Shown here: positions 36,786-63,411 of the stretch, piece after piece | Layout of the letters: the number at the start of each line of letters is the position of its first letter | Position numbering within the stretch: the first letter of the stretch is position 1 | Source: Octopus vulgaris | Taxonomy: Eukaryota | Direction of reading: 5' to 3' | Length of the DNA: 64,000 nt | Assembly (NCBI GenBank): GCA_951406725.2 | Contig: OX597836.1 | Span: 49,352,001 to 49,416,000, forward strand | The notes under the pieces: model-generated | Told to the model about the DNA's origin: nothing | The model's database searches: none | What the model saw: only the letters and a program-made list of their open reading frames with translations | Position numbers and translations under genes: made by a program

Positions 36786-37172
36786 GGGTTTAATTCATTG
36801 AGTAAGTCCTATGGTTTGTTGACCGTTAAGTTCCAAAGTCATACAAATCCAGGCGGTATTTTGGATGAGGTATTCATATTGTAAATGTGTATAGAGAGCG
36901 AGAACATAAGATAGGCACAGATGTGTTTTGTGACTGGGTGTGTATAGGAGAGAGAGGGGGGAGAAAGAGAGAGAGAGGAGAAAGGAATGGAAATAAGATA
37001 GGGGTAGAAGGGTAAGAATAAGGATAAAAATAAAATAAAAGTAAAAGGTAACACATACATAAACATACACACATACAGACACCCATAAGCACATATATAT
37101 ATATATACATGCATACATACATACATACATACATACATACATACATACATACATACATACATACATACATAC

Positions 37173-40100
37173 ATTTTATTTATGGCTGCCCCCTCGTTAT
37201 CGAGTATGGCCATTGCACGACGCTTAACTGTTACTGGTGCTGTGATCGAATGTGACTTTTTAGCCCAGCTAAAGGTACAAAATTGACAACTAAAACCTTT
37301 ACCGGTAATAGCTGGCTGTAGTTGTAACTGGGCTTCTAGTACCTTTGCATGTCGTTTAAGTCCTCCTGCCGAATTACACTCTCTTCTACATGCCCGACAG
37401 ATATGATTAGTATGGTGTGTTACACCACCACCAGTGGCCAGGTTGTCACTCATCTGTCTCGTTTTATGACTACGAAGATGACTCATGAGTCCAGCTTTAC
37501 TGAGGCAGGGTCTTGCACAGACATTGCATGTCAGAATCAAAGGAAGACCCTTCCCTTCTGGAAGTGTAACAGCGATGCCCTTACTGACATCCCTCCTTAC
37601 TTTCTCATGTTCAACTCGAGATTTCTCAACCGTGGCTGTCCCCTCATGAACAATCCTTCTCCACCTGCTACGATCAATAGCTATGTCTTCCCATGTGTCA
37701 GGAGAGATGCAAGCATCTCTTAAGGAAGCCTTCAGCAAGTCCTTATACCTCTTTTTTGGTTTATGTGGAGGTCGTTCTCCTTTGGCCATAAAAGAGTTGT
37801 TTTGGCAACCTTGAATCCTTCATTCTGACCAGATGACCACTCCATCTGAAGAGCTTCTATACTTTAACACCGAGAGCCTTCGAGTATTTCAAGATCACTG
37901 ATGCGGTCCTTCCACTTAATGCTATAGATCCGTCTGAGGCACATCTGATGGAAACGTTCCAGTTGTTTAAGGTGGTATCGATATGTGACGCACGTCTCGC
38001 AGGCATAGAGAAGAGAAGGGAGCACACATGCCTTGTACACCTTTATCTTTGTCTTTCTGCATATATCTCGCCGACTCCAGAGGCGCTTTTCTAGCCTTCC
38101 GAAAGCAACATTTGCTTTCCTAATTCTATATGGAATTTCATCATCCACATTGCCATATCTATTAATAGTACTTCCCAGGTAGACAAACTGATCAACTACA
38201 TCAAGTCGTTTACTATACATATAGATATTTGGTACACTATACTGCTTACCAGGGGCAGGTTGATGCATGACAACAGTTTTCTTGAGATTGACTGTCAATC
38301 CTAAGGCAGTGCAAGCATCAGAGAATGCATTCAAAATGTATTGCATATCAATCTCTGTGTGTGCTACTAGCTCACAATCATCAGCATACAAAAGGTCTCT
38401 TATGATAGAGGTAAATATCTTTGTTTTTGCAGCAAGACGCCTGATATTAGGTATGCTGCCAGAGGTTTGATAATGGATGTAAACACCGTATCTGCAGTTT
38501 CTGAATGCAATACAGAACACCATCGCGAAATATATGGAAAATAGGATCGGTGCCAGAATATCGCCCTGTTTCACTCCATTTTGTATTGAAATGGGCTCCG
38601 ACATCTTCCCTCTAACATTCATCCTACTATTCAAGTCTTCATGAAAAGACCTAACCAAAGCAAGGAACTTTTCAGGACACCCAAGTTTCTGGAGGACTTT
38701 CCACAATGCTTTTCTATTGACGGTATCAAAGGCTTTTGTCAGATCGGCAAACACCTGATACAAATCCAGACCCTGTTCCACACTCTTTTCCTGAAGCTGT
38801 CTAGCTGAAAAGATCATATCAGCAGTGCCACATCCCACATGAAAGCCAGATTGACTTTCTGGAAGAACACAATCTGCAATGTATTTCAGCAGACGATCCA
38901 GAAGTATCCTGCATAAAACCTTTCCTACAGCAGACAGCAATGATACTCCCCTATAATTACCTCAATCATTCCTGTTGCCCTTTCACTTATACAGGACCAC
39001 CATCACTGCATTTCTCTGGTCCTCAGGTACAAATTCACTAGTCCATATCTTACCAAACAAAGAGTGAAGTTTCTGCAGAAGTTTCTCACCACCATACTGT
39101 AACAACTCCGCATGTATGCCATCCATACCCGGAGACTTCCCATTATTCAACCTTGAGACAGCCATTGCAACTTCTTCAAACTTTGGTGGTTCTGCGAGTG
39201 CTGCCTTCACAGGTAATCCAGGGATGAGATTGAGAACATTCTCACTAACTACAGACTGCTGATTCAAAAGTTCATCAAAGTGTTCTTGCCACCTTCGCAG
39301 AATTCCTTGTGAATCACGAAGAAGTTCTTTACCATCCCTGCTTCGAAGTGGTGTCAACAGGGAAGATGTCGGTCCATAAACTTCTCGCAAGAGACCATAC
39401 AACAGCTTTGTGTTATTGGAATCTGATGCCGCCTGTATCTCATCAGCCTTCTTACTCCGCCACGTATCCCTCATCTGAGAGAGCCTTTGCCTCACACGTG
39501 ATTTTACGTCTTCGAATTCCCTATGCAACACTTCCCTTTCCTGTGACTTTGCTGACAAATAGCGTGACAAAGTACGTCTTTTATCAGCCAATAAATCATC
39601 TTTATGTTCATCATTTTCTTTGAACCAATCTTGATGCTTTCTTTGTATCAATCCCAGAACTTTCTTGCCTATATCATAAATTGACTTTTTAAGGGTCGGC
39701 CAATCCTCCCCAATATCTGCAGCATTCATTTCCTCTCGTAAAGTTCTCTTCACACTATTATACCTAAGACGATCAACATTCAGTCTTTTAGGCAGGGTCA
39801 TCCCTGCAGCTCGGATTTTATGTTTTGTGACTAATTTCACTTTTGCACGTACTAGGAGGTGGTCAGTCCAACACTCAGCTCCACGAAGAACACGAACACA
39901 CTGCACATCCTGTCTGTCACGCACCCTAACTAGGATGTAATCCAGAATATGCCATTCTTTAGATGCAGGGTGCATCCATGTAGTCTTAAGCTTATTCTTT
40001 TGTTGAAACATGGTATTGGTAACACACAGACTTAGCTCCTCACACATCTGCAACAAAAGCATGCCATTACTATTACACTTCCCCACCCCATGCTTTCCAA

Positions 40101-41388
40101 TTACAGTCCATGTGTTAAAATCCCTACCCACTCTAGCATTAAAGTCACCTAGTAGGATGACTTGGTCTGCCCGAGGGATATTTCTTATAATGCCCTTCAA
40201 AGCATGGTAGAAAGAAAGTTGTTCGTCATCAGTATAGCACATAGTTGGAGCATACACACTCACCAAGGTCAAATAATTTCCTTTAGCCAAAGGAATTCTC
40301 ATGGACATAAGACGCTCATTAATTCCGACTGGGAATTCTTCAAACTTGTCCACAAGAGTAGTCTTAACAGCAAATGCCACTCCAGCTTCTCCTCTAAGCT
40401 TTTCATCTCTCCCTTTCCAAAAGAATGTATATTTTCCACAAGATTCTGTAAGATGACCATCTCCAGGTAATCTCGTCTCAGATAAAGCAACGATGTCAAG
40501 ATCATAGCGATGAAGCTCCTTCGCAACAAGCGCAGTCCTTCTTTCAGGACATTCAGAGGACTTGTGGTCAAGCAGTATCCGTACATTCCAACAGCCAATA
40601 TTCATTAATTTCTTTGGTTCTATCACAGTAGCATGATGACGGCCGGGTTCAGCTTGTGACGCTCTGGAGCCCCTGCCGGGCCAGACTCTTTCAGCTAATG
40701 TGGTTCCAGAGTCCTTACTGCCATTTATTTTTATACTGTTTTGGTACATCATTGATTTTTGCTTTTTAAGGCTACGGTCAGCCATTCATTTGAGACTCAC
40801 AGCACTATCAACAATCATGAATTAGTTAATCACTTTAATCAATCCAATGTAGTTATCGTGCAATACCTGTGCAAAAATATTTTTTTTTAAGTGAGGAAAG
40901 ACTGTGCACTGAGTCAATCCCACTCACTAAGCAACAGCAACCATAATCCGAAAAGAAGAACAAGTCAACATCATCGGTAACCACTGAGCCGCAGGTTTTA
41001 TGTCGGAGTTATCCCAGTTACCTGAGTTACTTTCTCCTAGAAGGATACCCTAACAAAGGCTAAGAGTCCTTCACTCCCAATGGTTTAACCGCGCGTTCGG
41101 GTATTCAGTCCGATTATTTCTATGTCCCCGCGCATGATACAGCCTTAAGCCTTAAGGGAAAAAAAAAAGAAAAGAAAGAAAAAAAACATTTATTGGATGG
41201 CCGTTGACTCTCAAGAGTTCCTCCGTCCTTTGACGGGTTTTGTTTTTCATCCCGCAGGGTGTCCAATAAACACCCTCCTCACCAAGCAAGCTTGGTGGGG
41301 TTACCGGTTTAGTCGCCGACGACCCGACCATGCAACAGGTTGTACTGGGTTACATGTTACCAGTAGCACTCGAAAGTGCCCTGACATA
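37173..41388 (-). mobile_element. Near-full-length RTE-clade (BovB-like) LINE, inactivated
   Basis: Single APE-RT ORF, ~600-bp 5' UTR with a ctcttagcctttgttagggtatccttctaggagaaag motif, very short 3' UTR running into (TATG)n. Confidence 0.9.
37200..40785 (-). pseudogene. RTE APE endonuclease-reverse transcriptase polyprotein, disrupted
   Basis: IGCWNVR, ALSETR, LGDFNARVG, LDYILV, TDH, DLTKAFDTV, GVKQGD, LLYADD, C-terminal CxxC..H...H. Two in-frame TGA near 38985 and 38965, plus a stop/deletion near 37864. Confidence 0.92.
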
Positions 41389-52524: not shown

Positions 52525-52967
52525 GAGTGAGAGAGCAGTTCATGCCATCAAAGTGACACTGGGGTAAAATATACGAAGCCCAGTATACCCATCATGACTA
52601 CCCGTCTGATAAAGGCACACCAGGCACATGCATCACAACCATATGTGCGCGACATGGTGATCTCACATCAAGATAAACAGCACATGACCTTGCAGGTGGG
52701 GCCCAGTTAGAATTTTCTTCAGGTTGAGTAGTCCATCCTGCTCAAAAGGTCCCTGAATAAGGGTTGCTTTAGGATGTTGAACGAAACACCTATGTTTCCA
52801 GAGGTGAATTATTCAAACCCCAAAGAATCCCTCTCAACACATGGCCATGATGCTCCCCCACTACTTCTGCTCGTGATCAGAAATGCACATATCGTCAGCC
52901 ACTAAGGGACATGCTCAACTGGTTAAGGCCAAACAACTGACAAGCAAATCTGTGGTATTGAGCAGAA

Positions 52968-52971
<4 letters not shown>
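52525..52971 (-). mobile_element. Element A copy 1 (3' 447 bp)
   Basis: Flanked by (TTA)n; near-identical to 53404-53851. Confidence 0.85.
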
Positions 52972-53020
<49 letters not shown>

Positions 53021-53022
<2 letters not shown>

Positions 53023-53362
53023 GTTTTTTCCTTCTTTCTTCAAATTTTCTTCCGTTTCTCGCCGAGTGTTTTCCACATACCTAGGGCAGAGAAGCTCATT
53101 GTATGCATTTCCAGATTACACAGGCAAATTCACAAATAAAATATGTATTTAAATATTTAATAAATAAATAAATTCATGGATGGATGTTGTTTTCACAGCG
53201 ATAATGTTCTTCTCAGTACAAGAGCCGTTCCAGTTAATACGATTTTTTGCACTTCCTGTAGGGATGGTTGACCTGGAATCATTTTTAAATAGGTTTCAGT
53301 ACCTTTTTTTATCATTCCTAGAGATCCTATAATCACTGGTACTGTAGTCGCCTTGAGATGCT
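53021..53362 (-). mobile_element. R4/Dong 3' fragment (Dong-B)
   Basis: Minus strand HLKATTVPVIIGSLGMIKKG...QEVQKIVLTGTALVLRRTLSL*, then a 3' UTR and (TAA)n. Confidence 0.85.
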
Positions 53363-53403: not shown

Positions 53404-54178
53404 GAGTGAGAGAGCAGTTCATGCCATCAAAGTGACACTGGGGTAAAATATACGAAGCCCAGTATACCCATCATGACTACCCGTCTGATAAAGGCACACC
53501 AGGCACATGCATCACAACCATATGTGCGCGACATGGTGATCTCATATCAAGATAAACAGCACATGACCTTGCAGGTGGAGCCCAGTTAGAATTTTCTTCA
53601 GATCGAGTAACCCATCCTGCTCAAAAGGTCCCTGAATAAGGCTTGCTTTAAGGATGTTGAACGAAACACCTATGTTTTCAGAGGTGAATTATTCAAACCC
53701 CAAAGAATCCTTCTCAACACATGGCCATGATGCTCCCCCACTACTTCTGCTCGTGATCAGAGATGCACATATCGTCAGCCACTAAGGGACATGCTCAACT
53801 GGTTAAGGCCAAACAACTGACAAGCAAATCTGTGGTATTGAGCAGAATATTTGCTGTTTCTTCAAATTTTCTTCCGCTCCATCTTTTCCATACCAAGGAC
53901 AAAACAATGTACATAATAACACTTCCAATCAGTTAAGATCAGAAGCCATGAGAGCCACTGCCTGGTACTGCATAGCCATGAGAGCCACTGCCTGGTACTG
54001 CATAGCCATGAGAGCCACTGCCTGGTACTGCATAGCCACTGCCTGGTACTGCATAGCCACTGCCTGGTACTGCATAGCCACTGCCTGGTACTGCATAGCC
54101 ACTGCCTGGTACTGCATAGCCACTGCCTGGTACTGCATAGCCACTGCCTGGTACTGCATAGCCACTGCCTGGTACTGC

Positions 54179-54180
<2 letters not shown>
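53404..54180 (-). mobile_element. Element A copy 2 with reiterated 5' end
   Basis: Full ~570-bp body plus tandem copies of its terminus; (TTA)n on both sides. Confidence 0.85.
53944..54180. repeat. 3 x 30-bp plus 7 x 21-bp tandem array
   Basis: agccatgagagccactgcctggtactgcat x3, then agccactgcctggtactgcat x7. Confidence 0.97.
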
Positions 54181-54239
<59 letters not shown>

Positions 54240-54242
<3 letters not shown>

Positions 54243-55960
54243 TAGTTTTATTTTTATATCGTGCTTTCACTTCACTACCGAGCGCAGCTCTGTGTGCCTT
54301 GTGTATGTGCTGTGATTTGTTGTGATGCTCTGATGGTTATTGTATGGAAAGTGTTCTGCGTAGGATGTGTGCAGTGCCTAGTAGTGCAATTTTCTGTATG
54401 TAATATGTGTTTGTAAGTCCTGGTGTTTTTGTTATGTATTTGTCTGAATATTTTTTTATCATACCTAATGCACCTACTATGATAGGAATTGTTTCTGTTT
54501 TCAGATTCCACATTCTAGTTACCTCTATTTCCAGGTCTTTGTATTTTGAGAGTTTCTCCATTTCTTTTAGAGACACGTTGTCATCAGCCGGTATTGATAC
54601 TTCAATTAGAAAGAATTTTTTATCTTCATGATCTCTGACAACTATATCTGGTCTGTTGGCCTTAATTTCTCTATCTGTGTGTATCGGCATATCCCAGAGT
54701 ATGGTTGCTTTCTCGTTTTCTGTGACCTTTTCTGGTGTGTGCCTATACCATCTTTTTTCTGTTGTTATTCCATAATGTTGGCATAGCTTCCAATGTATGT
54801 AGGTTCCAACTCTGTCATGTCTGTGAATATATTCCTTCTTAGCCAGGACTGGGCAGCTAGAGATAATATGATTTATTGTTTCTTGTCCATCTCCACATAT
54901 TCTGCAGTTACTTGTAATATTTCTTTTCATTACATGTTTTTGGTAATTTCTGGTGGGGAGGCTTTGGTCTTGTGCTGCAATTAAAAATCCCTCTGTCTCT
55001 GCTTTGAGTCCTGAGCTTCTCAACCATTGCTGGGATTTTTCTTTGTCTATTTCTTTTGCGTTTAGTTTAGTCCAGTATTTACCATGAAGGGGTTTTTCTT
55101 GCCATCGTTTTATCATGGTTCGTTGCTGTTCTATTTTTAGTTTGGATTCATTTGTTTTATAGCTTTTGTTGTTTCTTCATCTTCTTCTTCTTCTTCATGT
55201 TTATTAGGTGGTATGATTTCTTGTTTGTATTTGTCAGCTTCCTTAAATACTGAGAACAGTTTTTTGTTTTGCTCGTGTTTTGCCGCTATCTGGATTAGTT
55301 TTCCTTCCTTCTGAAATAGATATTTTTGCAGTCCTATGGTGGTTATTTTATAGTAGTTTTCCAGCTGTATAAGGCCTCTACCACCTTCTATACGTTGTAT
55401 ATATAGTCTTTCTATGTCAGATTTTGGGTGATGCATCCTAGATCCTGTCATTATTTTTCTTGTTTTCCTATCTATTTTGGTCAGTTCATTTCGTGTCCAG
55501 TTAAGGATATTGTAGCTGTAACTTATAACTGGGACAGCTAAAGTGTTGATACCTATTATCTTGTTTTTAGCATTGAGCTCTGTGTTTAGTATTGATCTAA
55601 CTCGTCTATAATATTCTTTTTTTATTTTCTCTTTCATTTGTGTGTGTTGTGTCTTATCTAGTTCATGGATTCCTAAGTATTTGTAAGTTTGGTTTTGGTC
55701 TAATTCTTTTATTTCATTGGTTTTATCTAGTGTGATGTTGTTACTCTTAACTAGTTTTCCTCTTTTCATGGTTACTTTGGCGCATTTTTCTAATCCAAAT
55801 TTCTAATCTATTTCTTTGGTAAATCCATGAACTGTCTTTAATAGTGTTTCCAGCTGTTTGTCATTTGCAGCGTATAGTTTTAGGTCATCCATATATAAAA
55901 GGTGGCTGATCGTTTTGCCGTAACATTTATATCCGCATCCAGTTCTATTTAGCATATCAG

Positions 55961-55961
<1 letters not shown>
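54240..55961 (-). mobile_element. 5'-truncated R4/Dong LINE (Dong-C) in (TAA)n
   Basis: Perfect (TTA)n on both flanks; RT end, CCHC and REL domains; ~100-bp 3' UTR. Confidence 0.92.
54337..55961 (-). pseudogene. Dong RT (from YMDD) with CCHC finger and restriction-like endonuclease; small frameshifts
   Basis: ISHLLYMDDLKLYA, YKYLGI, RLYIQRIEGGRGL, CRICGDGQETINHIISSC, RHD, RPDIVV, LIEVS, KLSKYKDL. Confidence 0.92.
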
Positions 55962-56032
<71 letters not shown>

Positions 56033-56784
56033 GAGTGAAGGAGCAGTGCATGCCATCAAAGTGACACTAGGGTATAAATATACGAAGCCCAATATACCCA
56101 TCATGACTACCCGTCTGATAAGGGTACACCAGGCACATACATCACAATCATATGTACGCAACACGGTGATCTCATATCACGATAAACAGCACATGACCTT
56201 GCAGGTGGGATCCAGTTAGAATTATCTTCAGGTCGAGAAGCCCATCCTGCTCAAATGGCCCCTGAATCAAATTGGTTTAAAGATGGTGAACGAAACACCC
56301 ATGTTTCCAGAGGTGAATTATTCAAGTCCCAAAGAATTCCTCTCAACACATGGATATGATAATATGCCCCCACTACTTCTGCTCGTGATCAGAGATGCAC
56401 ATATCGTCAGTCACTAAGGGATACGTTCAACTGGTTAAGGTCAAACAACTGACAAACAAATCTGTAGTATTGAGCAGAATATTTGCTGTAACCCATCTTT
56501 TATACCAAGACAAAACAATATACATAACACTTCCAATCAGTTAAGATCGGAAGCTATGAGAGCCACTGTCTGGTACTGCATGGCTTCTGATCTTAACTGA
56601 TTGTAAGTGTTATCATGTATATTGTTTTGTCTTGGTATAAAAGATGGACCTCAGCAAATATTCTGCTCAATACTACAGATTTGCTTGTCAGTTGTTTGAC
56701 CTTAACCAGTTGAGCATGTCCGTTAGTGACTGATGATATGTGTATCTCTGATTTCGAGCAGAAGTAGTGGGGAGCATCATAGCC
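56033..56784 (-). mobile_element. Element A copy 3 (56033-56581) plus an inverted copy of its 5' ~200 bp (56579-56784)
   Basis: After ...ggtactgcat the sequence continues ggcttctgatcttaactgatt..., the reverse complement of the preceding DNA back to ~56355. Confidence 0.88.
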
Positions 56785-56924
<140 letters not shown>

Positions 56925-58078: not shown

Positions 58079-59912
58079 ATGTCGAGAAATTTTATTTAGA
58101 ACGCTGGTTGCGTTCTTTTATGGACCAGCATTTTCCTAGTCTGGAAACGCGAGGAGAAAAAAAGAACGTATGCACGCAAAGTGCAAACCTGAATGACGTG
58201 GTAGTGAACGCTGCAACCACTTGCGGTAAGAGCCCTGTCACCACCACCACCACCACCTCCACCACCACCACCACTACCACCACGACCAACATAAATGATA
58301 AAAATGAAACTCACGCGAATACTATTAAGAAAAACAACAACAACAATAAAAATGAACTATCTAATAGTGAAGATGTTAATATAAAAAAAATCAACAACAC
58401 CAGTAAATTTCGCTGACACTGCGTCAGAAGAAGGAAATAGTAACATTTACAAATGAAGAGCTAATAGAAACGAGAACTCTCTTTACAACCCGTGGGCAAG
58501 ATTTAGTGCTGCATACACCTCAACACATAAAGGAACAAATAGAAAATAAGACAATTATATATAAAATTATAAGAAAAAAACAAAAAACAAAATGAACAGA
58601 TTACAAAAACGGATATAGAAAAATGTTTAAAAAGCATAATGAAAAAAGAAAGAATATATAAACTGGGGTCCCCAGTTTAACACAGTGGTGGTCCGCTTCC
58701 CTAACCAGGAAATGGCAAAAGCTCACTCTACCGAGTCTTTGGAAAATGATGATATCAAAATGGTACCTTATTTCAAAGGCAAGAGAGTGAGTAGAATTAC
58801 TATTAAAAATGTACCCCCCCGAGATCCCGAACAAATGGATAACAGGGGCAATCTGTTACCATTTGAAAAAGATCAATATTTTAGAAACAGCCGTGTACCT
58901 AAACGACAATTGGGGTGGAAAAACAATAGTAGTGACCATCCAGATTGAGGGGGCCTCTATCGAGAGCCTACCCGATAGGATCCACCTAGAAAATGGGCAA
59001 AGCCTATATGTTGTGGCAGAAGGCAAGAAGCCTAGATGCTACAACTGTGGCAGCCCAGAGCATTTAATTGCCAAGTGCACTCTGGCACAGAAAAAACAAG
59101 AAAGAACAAATCAGAAAACAAATAAAAAACCCTTGTTGCCAATACCAACACCAACACACTCAATTATGGAACAATGCCAAGAAGAAAAACAACAAACCAG
59201 CAAACAAACCCCAACAACATCACCAAGAAAAGAAACAGTACCAACAAAATCACCGTTGACGACGCAACCAATTTATCATGCTGAACCAAAAGATAGACCC
59301 ACACCAACACCCAGGACGACAATTAAAAAGACAGAAAACAGTGACGAGAAGACAAATTCTACCCCTAACACCATAACAACACAAACACCGCACAAAACAT
59401 CAACAATTTCTATAAGCATACATATTAACACAAATACTTTGCCTTTACCCTCTTCTGATACGTCGGACGACGAAAGTTCGACGGAATGGCAAATAGCCAC
59501 AGGGGGTAAAAGGAAAAGATCAAAAAAGCCCACCAAACAAGGAAGTAAAGCAGGGAGATATTTAACTCCGGACAGCACCCCCCTAGACAATCAAAAAGTC
59601 AATGAACCCGCAAAACCACACACACAACTAACTGCAATAGACACAGACAATAAAAAATTAATGGATTACATTGTATCCAACACGGACATCTGTGAAGATG
59701 ACTTTAAGACAAACAATCATCCGCGCACCACACCACCGAAGCACATAAAAATTGTACACATAACACAAACACAACACCATACACTGAAAACAATATTTCC
59801 AAATGCGGTAGGCGGGTTTCAACGATACCTCTCCAAAAAACTATACAAACACCTCATCAAAGACACTACAAAAGAAGAAGAAAAAAATGAAACTTTCGAA
59901 ATGAGTAAGTGA
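58079..59912 (+). pseudogene. Tx1 ORF1 (gag-like, CCHC knuckle), split by frameshifts
   Basis: SRITIKNVPP/EIPNKW (shift in a C7 run near 58814-58820), CYNCGSPEHLIAKC, T/P/K-rich tail, WQIATGGKRKR. Start position is approximate. Confidence 0.75.
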
Positions 59913-59979
59913 CCTTCCCTCTTGCCTCTTGTCTCTTCCAATGTTTGTGTGTGAAACACAATTTTCGTAAACGTCAATT

Positions 59980-62900
59980 ATGCTTAAATTAGGTTGTGTG
60001 AATGCGCGTGGCTTGGCGTCGGCTTGGAAGCAAGGTTACCTTCTAAACGACATCAAGTCACTGAACGTGGATATAGTAGCTATCAGTGAAACCAGACTCA
60101 GCAAGTCGCGGGCCCTCGCGTCCATGTTTGGCGATCAATTTGACATTTATTTTTCTCCCTGTCTGCCGAACATGGGTGGTGGAGGTACCGTGGTGCTTTT
60201 TCGAAAGAGTCTAAATGTAAAAGTAAGAACAATATTCCTAGATCCGGAGGGTAGGCTGGTTGTCTTGGACGTGGATGGCAGAAATGGGTGTGCATTCCGT
60301 CTGATGGCAGTTTATGCACCGTCCTTAACGGGTCGGGCGGATTTCTTCAGACGTCTAGAGGTTTTCCTGGGTACGTCTAGACCTTTACTGTTAGTAGGGG
60401 ATTGGAACGCTACCTTGGACACGCATCTAGATTATGTGGGAATGGATAGGAATAGAAGGGGGTGTAAGTGCCTCAAAGACCTACTCAGACGTTTCCATTT
60501 GTCTGACAGGTTCCGACTCGACCATCCGAACGTGCCAACGTGGACTTGGACAAACCGCGTCGGATCGTCGAGATCTTATCTAGACAGAATTCTATGCAGG
60601 ACAGCGGATAGGGATAGTGTAGGATGTCCACAATTTAAAATAGTCAGCTACACAGATCACAAATTTGTGACGTGTACGCTCGATTTAGATAAGACACATA
60701 GACAGGGTCCCGGTTACTGGAAACTGAACACGTCGCTCTTAGCGCGACAGGTTTACAGGAACCGGATTAGCGAGTTAATTAAGAGGGCGCTGACGGGAGC
60801 CGTCGTTAACAACCGCTGGTGGTTCGCCCTGAAAATGACAATAAAATCGGAATCAATTAGGTTTAGCAAGGAATTAGCGATAGATCGAAACAGAGTAGAG
60901 GGAGACCTAGTTAAGAAACTAGAAGAGGCACTTACTACTGGCAGCGCAACCAACGCGATGGCTGCGAGGATGGCCCTCGACCAACACCTCAACGCCAAGC
61001 ACGAAGGTTGCGTCGTCAGAGCTAAAATGCGTGCCTTAAGGAACGAAGGGATCGAAGCTGCGCGTGAGGCCCGGGTAGCGGAGGCGCAGCGTGGAAACAG
61101 AGCTACCATTCGGTCTCTAATAGATCAACAGGGATGCAGTTTACTCGAACCTGAAAGGATGCGTGAGGCCTTTCAACAGCACTTTGCTCGATTGTTTGGT
61201 GCGAGTGGTGGGTCGGAACGCGGGATGGATTTCAGTGCCTACCTGACCGACCTGCCGCGGCTCTCGGCAAGAGAAGCGGAGTGTTGTGAAAGTCTCATCA
61301 CAGCCGCTGACGTGCGGGATGCGATGGCGGGCTGCGCGAGGGATAAGTCGCCTGGATTGGATGGTTTACCCTACGAGCTGTATTGTCAAATGCCAGACTT
61401 GTTTGACGACCTCTTGGCATCAGTCTACTGCAACTGGCAACAAAACGGGAGAATTCCCGGTTTCGTGAGCCGAGGTGCAGTGACGTTGCTGAAGAAAGAC
61501 CCAAACAAGGGGAATTTTATAGATAATTTCAGGCCCATCACTCGGCTCAATGCAGATTTGAAAATTTTGGCCAAAGTAATAGCCGAGAGGTTGGCGCTTG
61601 TCATTGGTAAACTGGTCGACAGGGCGCAAACATGCGCCGTGCCGGGCAGAACCATACATGACAACCTCCATCTGATGCGCTACATTGTGGACAGGGTAGT
61701 TAAGGATCCTGGCATGGGTGGGGCGCTGATAAATTTGGATCAGTCTAAAGCATTCGATAGGGTCGACCATCGGTACTTGGCGGCCGTCCTCAGGGCGGCT
61801 GGCTTCGGTCCCGTCTTTCGCGGTTGGATCGCTGCCTTGTATAGCGGCATCCGATCGGTGATTCGGGTGAACGGTCACCTGTCGAAACCGTTTGACATCA
61901 CGCGTTCGGTCCGTCAGGGGTGTCCCCTGTCGGCGCTTCTGTATGTATTGACTCTCGAGCCGCTACTGCGGAAGCTGGCGACACTGAGGGGCATCCCACG
62001 GGAACTGGGTTGCGGGACGAGCGTGTCGGCATATGCGGACGATGTCACCGTCATAGTGTCGAGCAACAAACACATCCAGATGATAGGCGAGACACTAAGA
62101 AAATACGAAACGGTGACGGGAGCGAAGATTAACCCGGAAAAGTCAGTGGGTTTGCTACTCGGCACCTGGAGAAGCAAGCCCATGCCGTCCGACTGCGGCT
62201 CAGTAGTGGGACGCTGGACGGACAGACCGGTTAAATTGCTCGGGGTCTGGTTCAGTCCGGACCTCCAAATGGATAAGAACTGGAACCAGATCACGAGTAG
62301 AGTGGTCGCTCTCAGCCAAACATGGGCCGAGAGAAAGCTGTCTCTAAAAGGCCGGGCGGAGGTGGCGAACGCGTACATCGCATCCGTCATCGATTACCGC
62401 CTGACCGTCGTGCCTTGTCCCGACGCCACCATCACCAAACTAGAACGCATACTCTTCCGCTTCCTGTGGAAGGGTGGCGTTCCGATGGTGAGGAAGTCCA
62501 TTTGCTGTCAACATCCGTTGAATGGAGGACTGGGAATGCCGTGGTTGATGATGCGCAGGCATGCGCTGAGACTGCGGCATCTCTGGAACTTCATCGACGA
62601 CGGTGAACAGGTGTGGGCGCCGTTTGTGAGACGCGCCTTCCCGCAGCTCGTCTCACTGACCAAACTGCAAACGTGGATCAAAAAGAGACCGAAACTGGGC
62701 GATTGGCACCGAGAGTGTCGCCAAACTCTACAGCAGCTCTGCCGACCGGGGTCAAACTTGTGCAACTTACAAACGACTAAAGCGTTCTATAGAGGACTAG
62801 TGGAGGGGAGGTCCGACGACACACTCGGGGCAAACCTGGGCGTCGACGAGAAATTCCTAACCCGCCTGTTCAGGACGACGTTCGGGCCGGGGCCTATGGA

Positions 62901-63411
62901 TAACTTCCAGAAATCCCTGGCTTGGCAGTGCTATCGAGACGCACTACCTGTTCGAGAGAAGAGCTACAGACACGGTTCGAAAACCATCACCAGACCGACC
63001 TGCCCGAGATGCGGCCAGAGCGACGAAACCGTTCTGCACGCACTCGTGCAGTGTCCAGATATTTCAGAGCTGTGGACCTTCGTCGAACAGCTGTTGTCAC
63101 GTGTAGGTCGGGCCCGCCTATCGGCCGAGTCTATCGTGAATATTGTTCCACCACCTTCCTTTAAACGGGAAGGGAAAACGGTTTTCGTTACGCTGATGGC
63201 TATGGCGAAAGAATGTGTGTGGTGGACGCGTTTGAAAGGACTGCAAACAAACACCTTCCTCTCTGGTCAGTCTCTCGTCAACTTTTTCAAGTACCACTTG
63301 AAAATGAGGATGAGAATAGAGAGGAAGGCTTTGTCGAACGAATGTTTCAATAAAAAGTGGGTAAAAGTGGCAAAAATGGTCAGTATGAAAGACGACACTA
63401 ACGAGAAGTAA
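59980..63411 (+). CDS. Tx1/L1 ORF2: AP endonuclease, reverse transcriptase and C-terminal zinc finger, 1143 aa, uninterrupted
   Basis: GCVNARGL, ISETR, VYAP, VGDWN, YLDRIL, TDHK, KSPGLDG, DQSKAFDRVDH, VRQGCPLS, AYADD, GGLG, CPRCGQSDETVLHALVQC. Confidence 0.95.
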   Translation: MLKLGCVNARGLASAWKQGYLLNDIKSLNVDIVAISETRLSKSRALASMFGDQFDIYFSPCLPNMGGGGTVVLFRKSLNVKVRTIFLDPEGRLVVLDVDGRNGCAFRLMAVYAPSLTGRADFFRRLEVFLGTSRPLLLVGDWNATLDTHLDYVGMDRNRRGCKCLKDLLRRFHLSDRFRLDHPNVPTWTWTNRVGSSRSYLDRILCRTADRDSVGCPQFKIVSYTDHKFVTCTLDLDKTHRQGPGYWKLNTSLLARQVYRNRISELIKRALTGAVVNNRWWFALKMTIKSESIRFSKELAIDRNRVEGDLVKKLEEALTTGSATNAMAARMALDQHLNAKHEGCVVRAKMRALRNEGIEAAREARVAEAQRGNRATIRSLIDQQGCSLLEPERMREAFQQHFARLFGASGGSERGMDFSAYLTDLPRLSAREAECCESLITAADVRDAMAGCARDKSPGLDGLPYELYCQMPDLFDDLLASVYCNWQQNGRIPGFVSRGAVTLLKKDPNKGNFIDNFRPITRLNADLKILAKVIAERLALVIGKLVDRAQTCAVPGRTIHDNLHLMRYIVDRVVKDPGMGGALINLDQSKAFDRVDHRYLAAVLRAAGFGPVFRGWIAALYSGIRSVIRVNGHLSKPFDITRSVRQGCPLSALLYVLTLEPLLRKLATLRGIPRELGCGTSVSAYADDVTVIVSSNKHIQMIGETLRKYETVTGAKINPEKSVGLLLGTWRSKPMPSDCGSVVGRWTDRPVKLLGVWFSPDLQMDKNWNQITSRVVALSQTWAERKLSLKGRAEVANAYIASVIDYRLTVVPCPDATITKLERILFRFLWKGGVPMVRKSICCQHPLNGGLGMPWLMMRRHALRLRHLWNFIDDGEQVWAPFVRRAFPQLVSLTKLQTWIKKRPKLGDWHRECRQTLQQLCRPGSNLCNLQTTKAFYRGLVEGRSDDTLGANLGVDEKFLTRLFRTTFGPGPMDNFQKSLAWQCYRDALPVREKSYRHGSKTITRPTCPRCGQSDETVLHALVQCPDISELWTFVEQLLSRVGRARLSAESIVNIVPPPSFKREGKTVFVTLMAMAKECVWWTRLKGLQTNTFLSGQSLVNFFKYHLKMRMRIERKALSNECFNKKWVKVAKMVSMKDDTNEK

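Follow-up and report, generated by a model that had tools for sequence, protein, structure and literature searches.

When R2 protein inserts a sequence into 28S rDNA of cultured human cells (PRINT insertions), some events undergo snap-back, in which the 3′ end of the cDNA primes synthesis on the cDNA itself before its junction with the upstream target is made; the upstream flank then borders on antisense sequence of the element, at low frequency and also after full-length cDNA has been made, as described in the accessible parts of PMC11371274 and PMC11331408. For this reaction an enzyme-held short primer has been proposed, in a text that cites work on Pol theta (PMC11371274, accessible sections). 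In L1 twin priming an inverted element segment separates the main copy from the upstream flank, with short internal microhomology (PMC12350158, accessible sections). According to the available portions of PMC10191854, 10.1101/2024.12.14.628481 and PMC11724301, fold-backs at L1 sites and at DNA breaks involve self-annealing over 2–3 nt, a small hairpin and 50–220 nt of extra synthesis; the same portions put fold-back duplications at 0.3% of L1 events (PMC10191854) and record fold-back inverted duplications at yeast breaks (PMC11724301). Dong elements target TAA microsatellites (PMC3812793), and a Dong LINE is present in an octopus repeat library (PMC9115989), as far as the accessible text of these two sources goes.

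Here we analysed a hairpin in a 64-kb window (the whole stretch of DNA that was studied, on contig C23), at the 5′ junction of the third copy of a repeat termed element A (Table 1). A preliminary description of this DNA had reported a snap-back of about 200 bp at the junction, and self-comparison of the window confirmed the inverted repeat (56364–56777; 87.8% identity over 419 columns), which has an ungapped core of 158 nt at 92%. When this stretch was folded as RNA the energy was −300 kcal/mol, compared with −100 ± 5 in 100 shuffles (z = −41.6). Element coordinates were taken from L008, a young natural copy of element A, to which the main copy of copy 3 is 91% and the inverted arm 94% identical. 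The two are fused head-to-head via a 3-nt overlap between CAT (56579–56581) and ATG (56556–56558), with 20 unpaired bases in between. The description was also right that this CAT is complementary to the ATG where the inverted copy starts, that (TTA)n follows from 56785, and that the segment is duplicated, bases 34–240 being present twice. Its statement that the arm is the reverse complement of the main copy for about 200 bp holds for the inversion, which is real, and overstates the match, since the arms are only about 90% alike.

The distance from the turn point to the natural 5′ end of the family is 10 nt, and the truncation is not a deep one. We found that the arm stops short of a 3′ end, 318 nt of 3′ sequence being missing, and directly abuts (TTA)n, with zero shared bases at 56784/56785 as read from the sequence. 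The main copy has a normal 3′ junction on its (TAA)n tract, (TAA)n flanks the whole insert on both sides, and the upstream (TTA)n turns into (TAA)n at about 56858. The order on the sense strand is target, inverted arm, main copy, target, which is that of a single insertion carrying an inverted 5′ duplication. We consider that the hairpin is probably an inverted duplication of bases 34–240 generated by cDNA snap-back during target-primed insertion, and the self-primed second-strand synthesis invoked in the preliminary description is its best-supported origin. This origin is favoured by the intact 3′ end on the target repeat and by a main copy that reaches further 5′ than the start of the arm. 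Inverted (TTA)n/(TAA)n junctions were also present beside element A at 4 of 54 loci (L009, L019, L026 and L029), compared with 2 in 600 kb of arbitrary tiles, and are possibly products of fold-back on the target DNA.

Table 1. Features at and around the hairpin, in window coordinates.
Feature	Position	Strand	Basis
Context: element A copy 1, 5′-truncated, 97.6% to copy 2	52525–52972	−	
Context: element A copy 2, tandem repeats of bases 11–31 and 11–40 at 5′ end	53404–54180	−	
Context: 5′-truncated Dong/R4-like LINE (RT end, zinc-binding motif, restriction-like endonuclease), candidate mobiliser type	54241–55960	−	ORFs, Pfam zf-RVT
(TAA)n tract at element 3′ end, target and tail of insertion	55961–56032	−	Sequence
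Element A copy 3, main copy, bases 11–558, intact 3′ end	56033–56581	−	L008 alignment; family ends from 29 other copies
Predicted priming hairpin of cDNA end, CAT on ATG, inner stem closing a 5-nt loop	56556–56581	+	Weak minimum-energy fold
G>A at element base 23, within loop; also in second same-junction locus	56569	−	Alignment; 4/73 background copies
Inverted duplicate arm, bases 34–240, without own 3′ end	56579–56784	+	L008 alignment, variants common to main copy
Upstream target (TTA)n flipping to (TAA)n, inverted microsatellite junction	56785–56924	.	Sequence

Palindromes are a known artefact of long reads. No contig crossing the junction was present among the matches listed (32 of about 64,900; four public runs, 56034–56783), the contigs of these runs being broken up by the repeat. 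The absence is no proof of anything; it leaves room for a chimera of assembly or library formed from a fold-back read, and it weakens the case for snap-back. A chimera would, in turn, give identical arms, whereas here the arms differ at 18 of 197 sites (9 private substitutions in each, or 4.6% per arm) and by indels, with a spectrum dominated by C>T and G>A. Furthermore, a 79-nt contig of public run X1 matched 56226–56304 of the main copy with zero differences, supporting the locus, though not the junction. A chimeric origin is therefore very improbable.

Element A is non-coding and 558 bp long, with a fixed 5′ end, a fixed 3′ end and (AAT)n on both sides (29 copies); an AAT tract lies downstream in 54 of 54 loci and upstream in 50 of 54. 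When the genome (2.8 Gb, 227 contigs) was searched with copy 3 there were 10,087 candidates, and the best other copies were 91% alike (40 scored). One 12-mer of the element occurs 16,504 times, compared with 467 for a control, and of 60 arbitrary 10-kb tiles, 8 contained a total of 11 matches, extrapolating to roughly 50,000 copies. The copy number of element A is about 16,000 or more. Comparison with Rfam gave no match to a known RNA head at gathering score; two microRNA matches fell below that score and are due to the hairpin. In bases 1–250 there was no A box of a Pol III promoter and one degenerate B-like site, the hammerhead core CTGANGA...GAAA was present on neither strand of element A nor as a hammerhead match in Rfam, and a loose descriptor gave zero HDV-like folds. 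A Pol III SINE with a tRNA, 5S or 7SL head was rejected, there being no RNA-gene head and no A box, and so was an inverted insertion of a Penelope-like pLTR or retrozyme, for which the hammerhead core was not found; more generally, Rfam and the descriptors revealed no ribozyme or Pol III head. Nor is element A the 3′ UTR of the adjacent RT gene, as (TAA)n at 54181–54240 lies between them and full-length LINEs are without element A.

A different kind of 5′ rearrangement is seen in copy 2, which at 53944–54180 carries direct tandem units of 21 and 30 nt from base 11, and 5′ tandem duplications of 17–134 nt were seen at element A loci L007, L016 and L048 as well as at LINE loci L181 and L183, which suggests repeated restart or template jumping at the 5′ end of the RNA. 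Such duplications seem commoner than fold-backs. Copy 2 also holds a foreign insert (53859–53880) resembling 53035–53058 just outside copy 1; together with the 97.6% identity of the two copies this is likely the result of local duplication or template switch.

We then considered the enzyme that might mobilise element A. The Dong/R4-like LINE fragment lies in the same (TAA)n cluster as the element A copies, and 150 places were listed for its family, which is young, the 149 others being 97–99% alike at the protein level. The ORFs of this family are 1151–1153 aa long and contain motifs, picked by eye, that we take to be those of RT and a restriction-like endonuclease. The 5′ flanks are (AAT)n, giving the same target and orientation as for element A. 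Because the (AAT)n target is common to both, we infer that a Dong/R4-type enzyme mobilises element A. When element A was compared by blastn with 38 loci, six of them holding full-length LINEs of this one Dong-like family, no match to LINE sequence fell below E 0.26. A partnership in which element A is the non-autonomous counterpart of the local LINE thus found no support in end-sequence homology with that one family, and the same result weakens the snap-back reading. An A run in the endonuclease region of the LINE (L149–L184; 45 nt read) keeps the frame in 11 of 28 copies, shifts it in 16 and creates a stop in 1, reflecting either homopolymer slippage or assembly error. Two further LINEs in the window have an apurinic endonuclease and an RT (58791–63411, plus strand; 36842–40785, minus strand), the former with an intact 1146-aa ORF2 and a zinc-knuckle ORF1.

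To compare the ancestry of the arms we used substitutions relative to the family majority. Three variants are common to both arms, at element bases 75, 129 and 184 (arm 56620, 56674 and 56729; main copy 56520, 56466 and 56411), with background frequencies of 4/80, 0/83 and 6/83, respectively. A motif of all three has two matches in 2.8 Gb (about 16,000 anchor-bearing copies), one per arm, and in a simulation with site-specific rates at least three common changes arose by chance with a probability of 0.016. The preliminary description had proposed private variants as a check on the arms, and the three found occur together nowhere else in the genome. This haplotype, confined genome-wide to the two arms, favours snap-back. 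The proposal that the arms come from two subfamilies, which the description had named as the finding that would count against it, was rejected, as the triple is in no subfamily, judged by exact motifs that often miss old diverged members. However, rare variants present in both arms are enriched with age: across 18 loci, older pairs had 20 in 2140 bp and young pairs had 2 in 1093 bp (P = 0.012), and L051, a copy chosen by similarity, holds two of the three variants plus one more variant of the arm. Both observations weaken the argument for snap-back and, because of the enrichment in older loci, the common variants are no proof of a single cDNA. Conversion between the arms may explain them; the arms are linked via one cDNA, by later conversion or by later duplication.

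The growth of common variants with age would also be expected if two independent insertions in opposite orientation had been fused by deletion and homogenised by gene conversion, and inverted neighbours do exist, at 2 of 54 loci. Under that scheme, though, two deletions are required, an arm lacking 318 nt of its 3′ end must still border on a (TTA)n tract oriented like the target upstream of the main copy, and the exact junction must have arisen again elsewhere. We regard it as decidedly improbable.

The junction itself does recur. Its exact 21-mer is found once in the genome, and twice when up to three mismatches are allowed. The second locus (L035/L075, on contig C26) has identical turn bases, a 241-nt arm, different flanks and none of the three variants, so that one further instance of the same fold-back start, which the preliminary description had suggested looking for, is available. 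The same junction at a second locus favours snap-back. Both loci carry the loop G>A (a post hoc observation with n = 2). A composite hairpin family that spreads as a unit was rejected: there is a single exact junction, and neither the flanks nor the arm length nor the variants of the two loci agree.

The findings at these two loci were extended by a census based on gapped palindromic motifs. With two exact anchors we found 10 head-to-head loci each, 19 of them distinct, and none with the controls. For the first anchor and gap there were 10 head-to-head loci and 1 tail-to-tail locus (P = 0.012), or 9 to 1 without the copy 3 locus (P about 0.02). Ten loci per about 16,000 anchors correspond to 0.06%, which is a lower bound because both anchors must be exact and be reached by the arm. 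Polarity was scored at 18 loci, with L069 added and L140 reclassed by eye; among the 19 head-to-head loci, 12 show fold-back polarity, 3 the reverse (L067, L145 and L146), 3 have two 3′ ends and 1 is unclear. At most fold-back loci nothing separates the arm from (TTA)n. The turn falls within 8–30 nt at 11 of the 15 polarised loci, compared with at most 22% under a uniform null (P = 3 × 10−5). The head-to-head excess, the 12 of 19 fold-back loci and the short turn spacing all favour snap-back; it is weakened by the reverse polarity of 3 of the 15 polarised loci, the 12:3 ratio reaching only P = 0.035, and about 0.06 without the copy 3 locus.

Several loci of the census have structures of their own. 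At L068 (C8:75528031), L138 (C2:184859454) and L142 (C16:12554326) the arms are head-to-head with both 3′ ends kept, offset by 15–29 nt, and those of L142 have 8 rare variants in common; these are either two synchronous insertions or a snap-back run to the end. At L072 (C16:13709472) and L146 (C30:19620298) the inverted arm is followed by a further 5′ piece (bases 1–71 or 2–95). The only tail-to-tail junction found, L136 (C11:3810327), joins 5′ parts of bases 1–91 and 8–163 and has no 3′ end.

The preliminary description had excluded twin priming on the ground that the segment is duplicated. This argument does not stand, as breakpoint duplications in twin-primed L1 insertions are on record in the accessible text of PMC12350158, and as the 3 reverse loci are impossible by simple fold-back. 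Twin priming with a duplication, or the use of two cDNAs, would yield the same final anatomy if the upstream (TAA)n end had started a second cDNA on the RNA at base 240 and this had reached base 34, the two ends then annealing by CAT and ATG. Both the reverse loci and those with two 3′ ends call for two cDNAs, or else for a loop that flipped later. Three observations speak against it at copy 3: the target repeat has no microhomology with the RNA at base 240, the RNA would need to be copied twice over 200 nt, and two free ends are expected to meet in either order and at varied spacing, whereas 11 of 15 loci turn within the short range and in one polarity. We therefore rate twin priming as a rather unlikely source of the copy 3 hairpin, although a more serious candidate than the two readings discussed above.

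A later fold-back at the DNA level was also weighed, in which DNA that had broken, or a fork that had stalled, close to the 5′ end of an ordinary insertion would have folded back, copied 200 nt and been rejoined to (TTA)n. Such a process explains the three locus-private variants in both arms without conversion, and little sequence need have been lost from an ordinary copy, as 10 of 80 selected element A copies with a 3′ end start at bases 8–12. In addition, fold-back inverted duplications form at breaks without retrotransposition, according to the available part of PMC11724301, and the neighbouring microsatellite is inverted too. It explains the common variants best, but not the 5′ bias: a preference for the 5′ side of the element is unexpected from a DNA-level process, yet the count is 10 to 1. 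Furthermore, L066, L139 and L140 have near-identical young arms without common variants, indicating that the structures form at or soon after insertion. An origin of this kind is thus improbable.

To gain insight into the priming step that cDNA snap-back implies, we folded the cDNA end. If the cDNA stops at base 11, its last base is paired with base 36 in the DNA fold of minimum energy, an imperfect 26-nt hairpin, and this register is the observed one, both in the copy 3 locus and in the young copy, which favours snap-back. The stability of this hairpin is low: at −1.7 kcal/mol (z = +0.8) it was no better than 160 of 200 shuffles, its terminal pair has a probability of 0.12, and at the other 8 fold-back loci scored the observed register was not obtained as a confident pairing. 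A fold no better than shuffles, and the lack of prediction elsewhere, weaken the snap-back reading; we rejected folding as a predictor of the turn point at other loci, where it was not informative. By analogy with R2, snap-back would have to involve an enzyme that holds a primer of 1–4 nt.

The events at copy 3 can be pictured as follows. A Dong/R4-type enzyme would have nicked the (TAA)n tract and, starting at the 3′ end of the RNA, reverse-transcribed it as far as base 11. The free cDNA end, with the RNA removed, may then have folded on itself with CAT on ATG, and RT or a host polymerase (of Pol theta or Pol delta type) could have extended it by about 200 nt on the cDNA. End-joining would next have attached the extended end to the upstream (TTA)n, with no microhomology involved, and the hairpin would have been opened by repair or replication into a genomic palindrome, which has presumably since accumulated its substitutions, at about 4.6% per arm, perhaps with some conversion between the arms. 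The hairpin is an old duplication. More tentatively, and with less likelihood than the snap-back itself, element A might preserve in the germline a set of snap-back events that can be counted, produced in trans by a Dong/R4-type enzyme; in these, a hairpin at the 5′ end would set the recurrent turn 11/34, loops would measure 10–25 nt and the palindromes would later swap variants. If this were true, deamination of the cDNA while its loop lay exposed would account for the loop G>A that both hotspot loci carry.

We also asked what the hairpin could mean for the host. The preliminary description had suggested a dsRNA substrate for ADAR. The part of this that stands is the duplex, which is long and near-perfect and, on the predicted fold, would be a good ADAR substrate if transcribed. 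Beyond the duplex the suggestion had no support. The arms themselves gave no editing signature (24 changes, with A>G once, T>C twice and no skew), and across the 18 scored loci there was no fossil ADAR editing either (A>G 30, T>C 34, C>T 67 and G>A 45). No host exon was found, only retroelement domains being detected by Pfam (47 of 126 window ORFs plus four more). Ordinary inverted neighbours lie within 1.5 kb of one another at 2 of 54 element A loci, far above the fold-back rate, and a fold-back hairpin therefore adds little to the dsRNA pool. We read the hairpin as a neutral by-product, not a functional RNA, and copy 3 gives no pointer to a new function.

In comparison with the described systems, by the features tested, element A is not R2, L1, Penelope or a Pol III SINE. 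Its target repeat and orientation are those of Dong elements, as given in the accessible part of the Dong literature, and the local Dong-like LINE has 5′ tandem duplications as well; unlike that LINE, element A is without an ORF, and no homology to the LINE ends was detected in it. L1-site and DNA-break fold-backs resemble copy 3 in their short self-annealing, small hairpin and length of extra synthesis and differ, as far as the available text describes them, in that genomic DNA beside the target is duplicated, whereas copy 3 duplicates the element itself. The twin-primed L1 insertions have the inverted segment in the same position as copy 3, with similarly short internal microhomology (PMC12350158, in part); in contrast, copy 3 has about 200 nt duplicated, nearly the whole arm, and no outer primer match, and the element A family shows a polarity bias and short loops. 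In the literature covered we found no snap-back in a natural non-autonomous element and no name for the element A family, and supplements, Repbase and subscription papers may hold either. The closest likeness is to R2 snap-back, and copy 3 shows the features of the R2/PRINT class, namely antisense fusion at the 5′ end, an internal arm start complementary to the cDNA end, and a normal 3′ junction on the target together with an arm attached to the target upstream. That R2 makes the same class of junction, also after full-length cDNA (PMC11371274, accessible sections), favours snap-back at copy 3, which differs in that the event was natural, left its trace in the germline and concerns a non-coding element resident in (TAA)n, the enzyme being deduced from the target. 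The probable mechanism is an already known, rare side-reaction, and the family is new for it. Element A provides a series of aged palindromes from which the rules of loop size, the contribution of twin priming and the extent of conversion between inverted arms could be measured. Collectively, these data extend an R2 side-reaction known from engineered insertions to the natural germline and to another target-specific system, in roughly at least 0.06% of copies.
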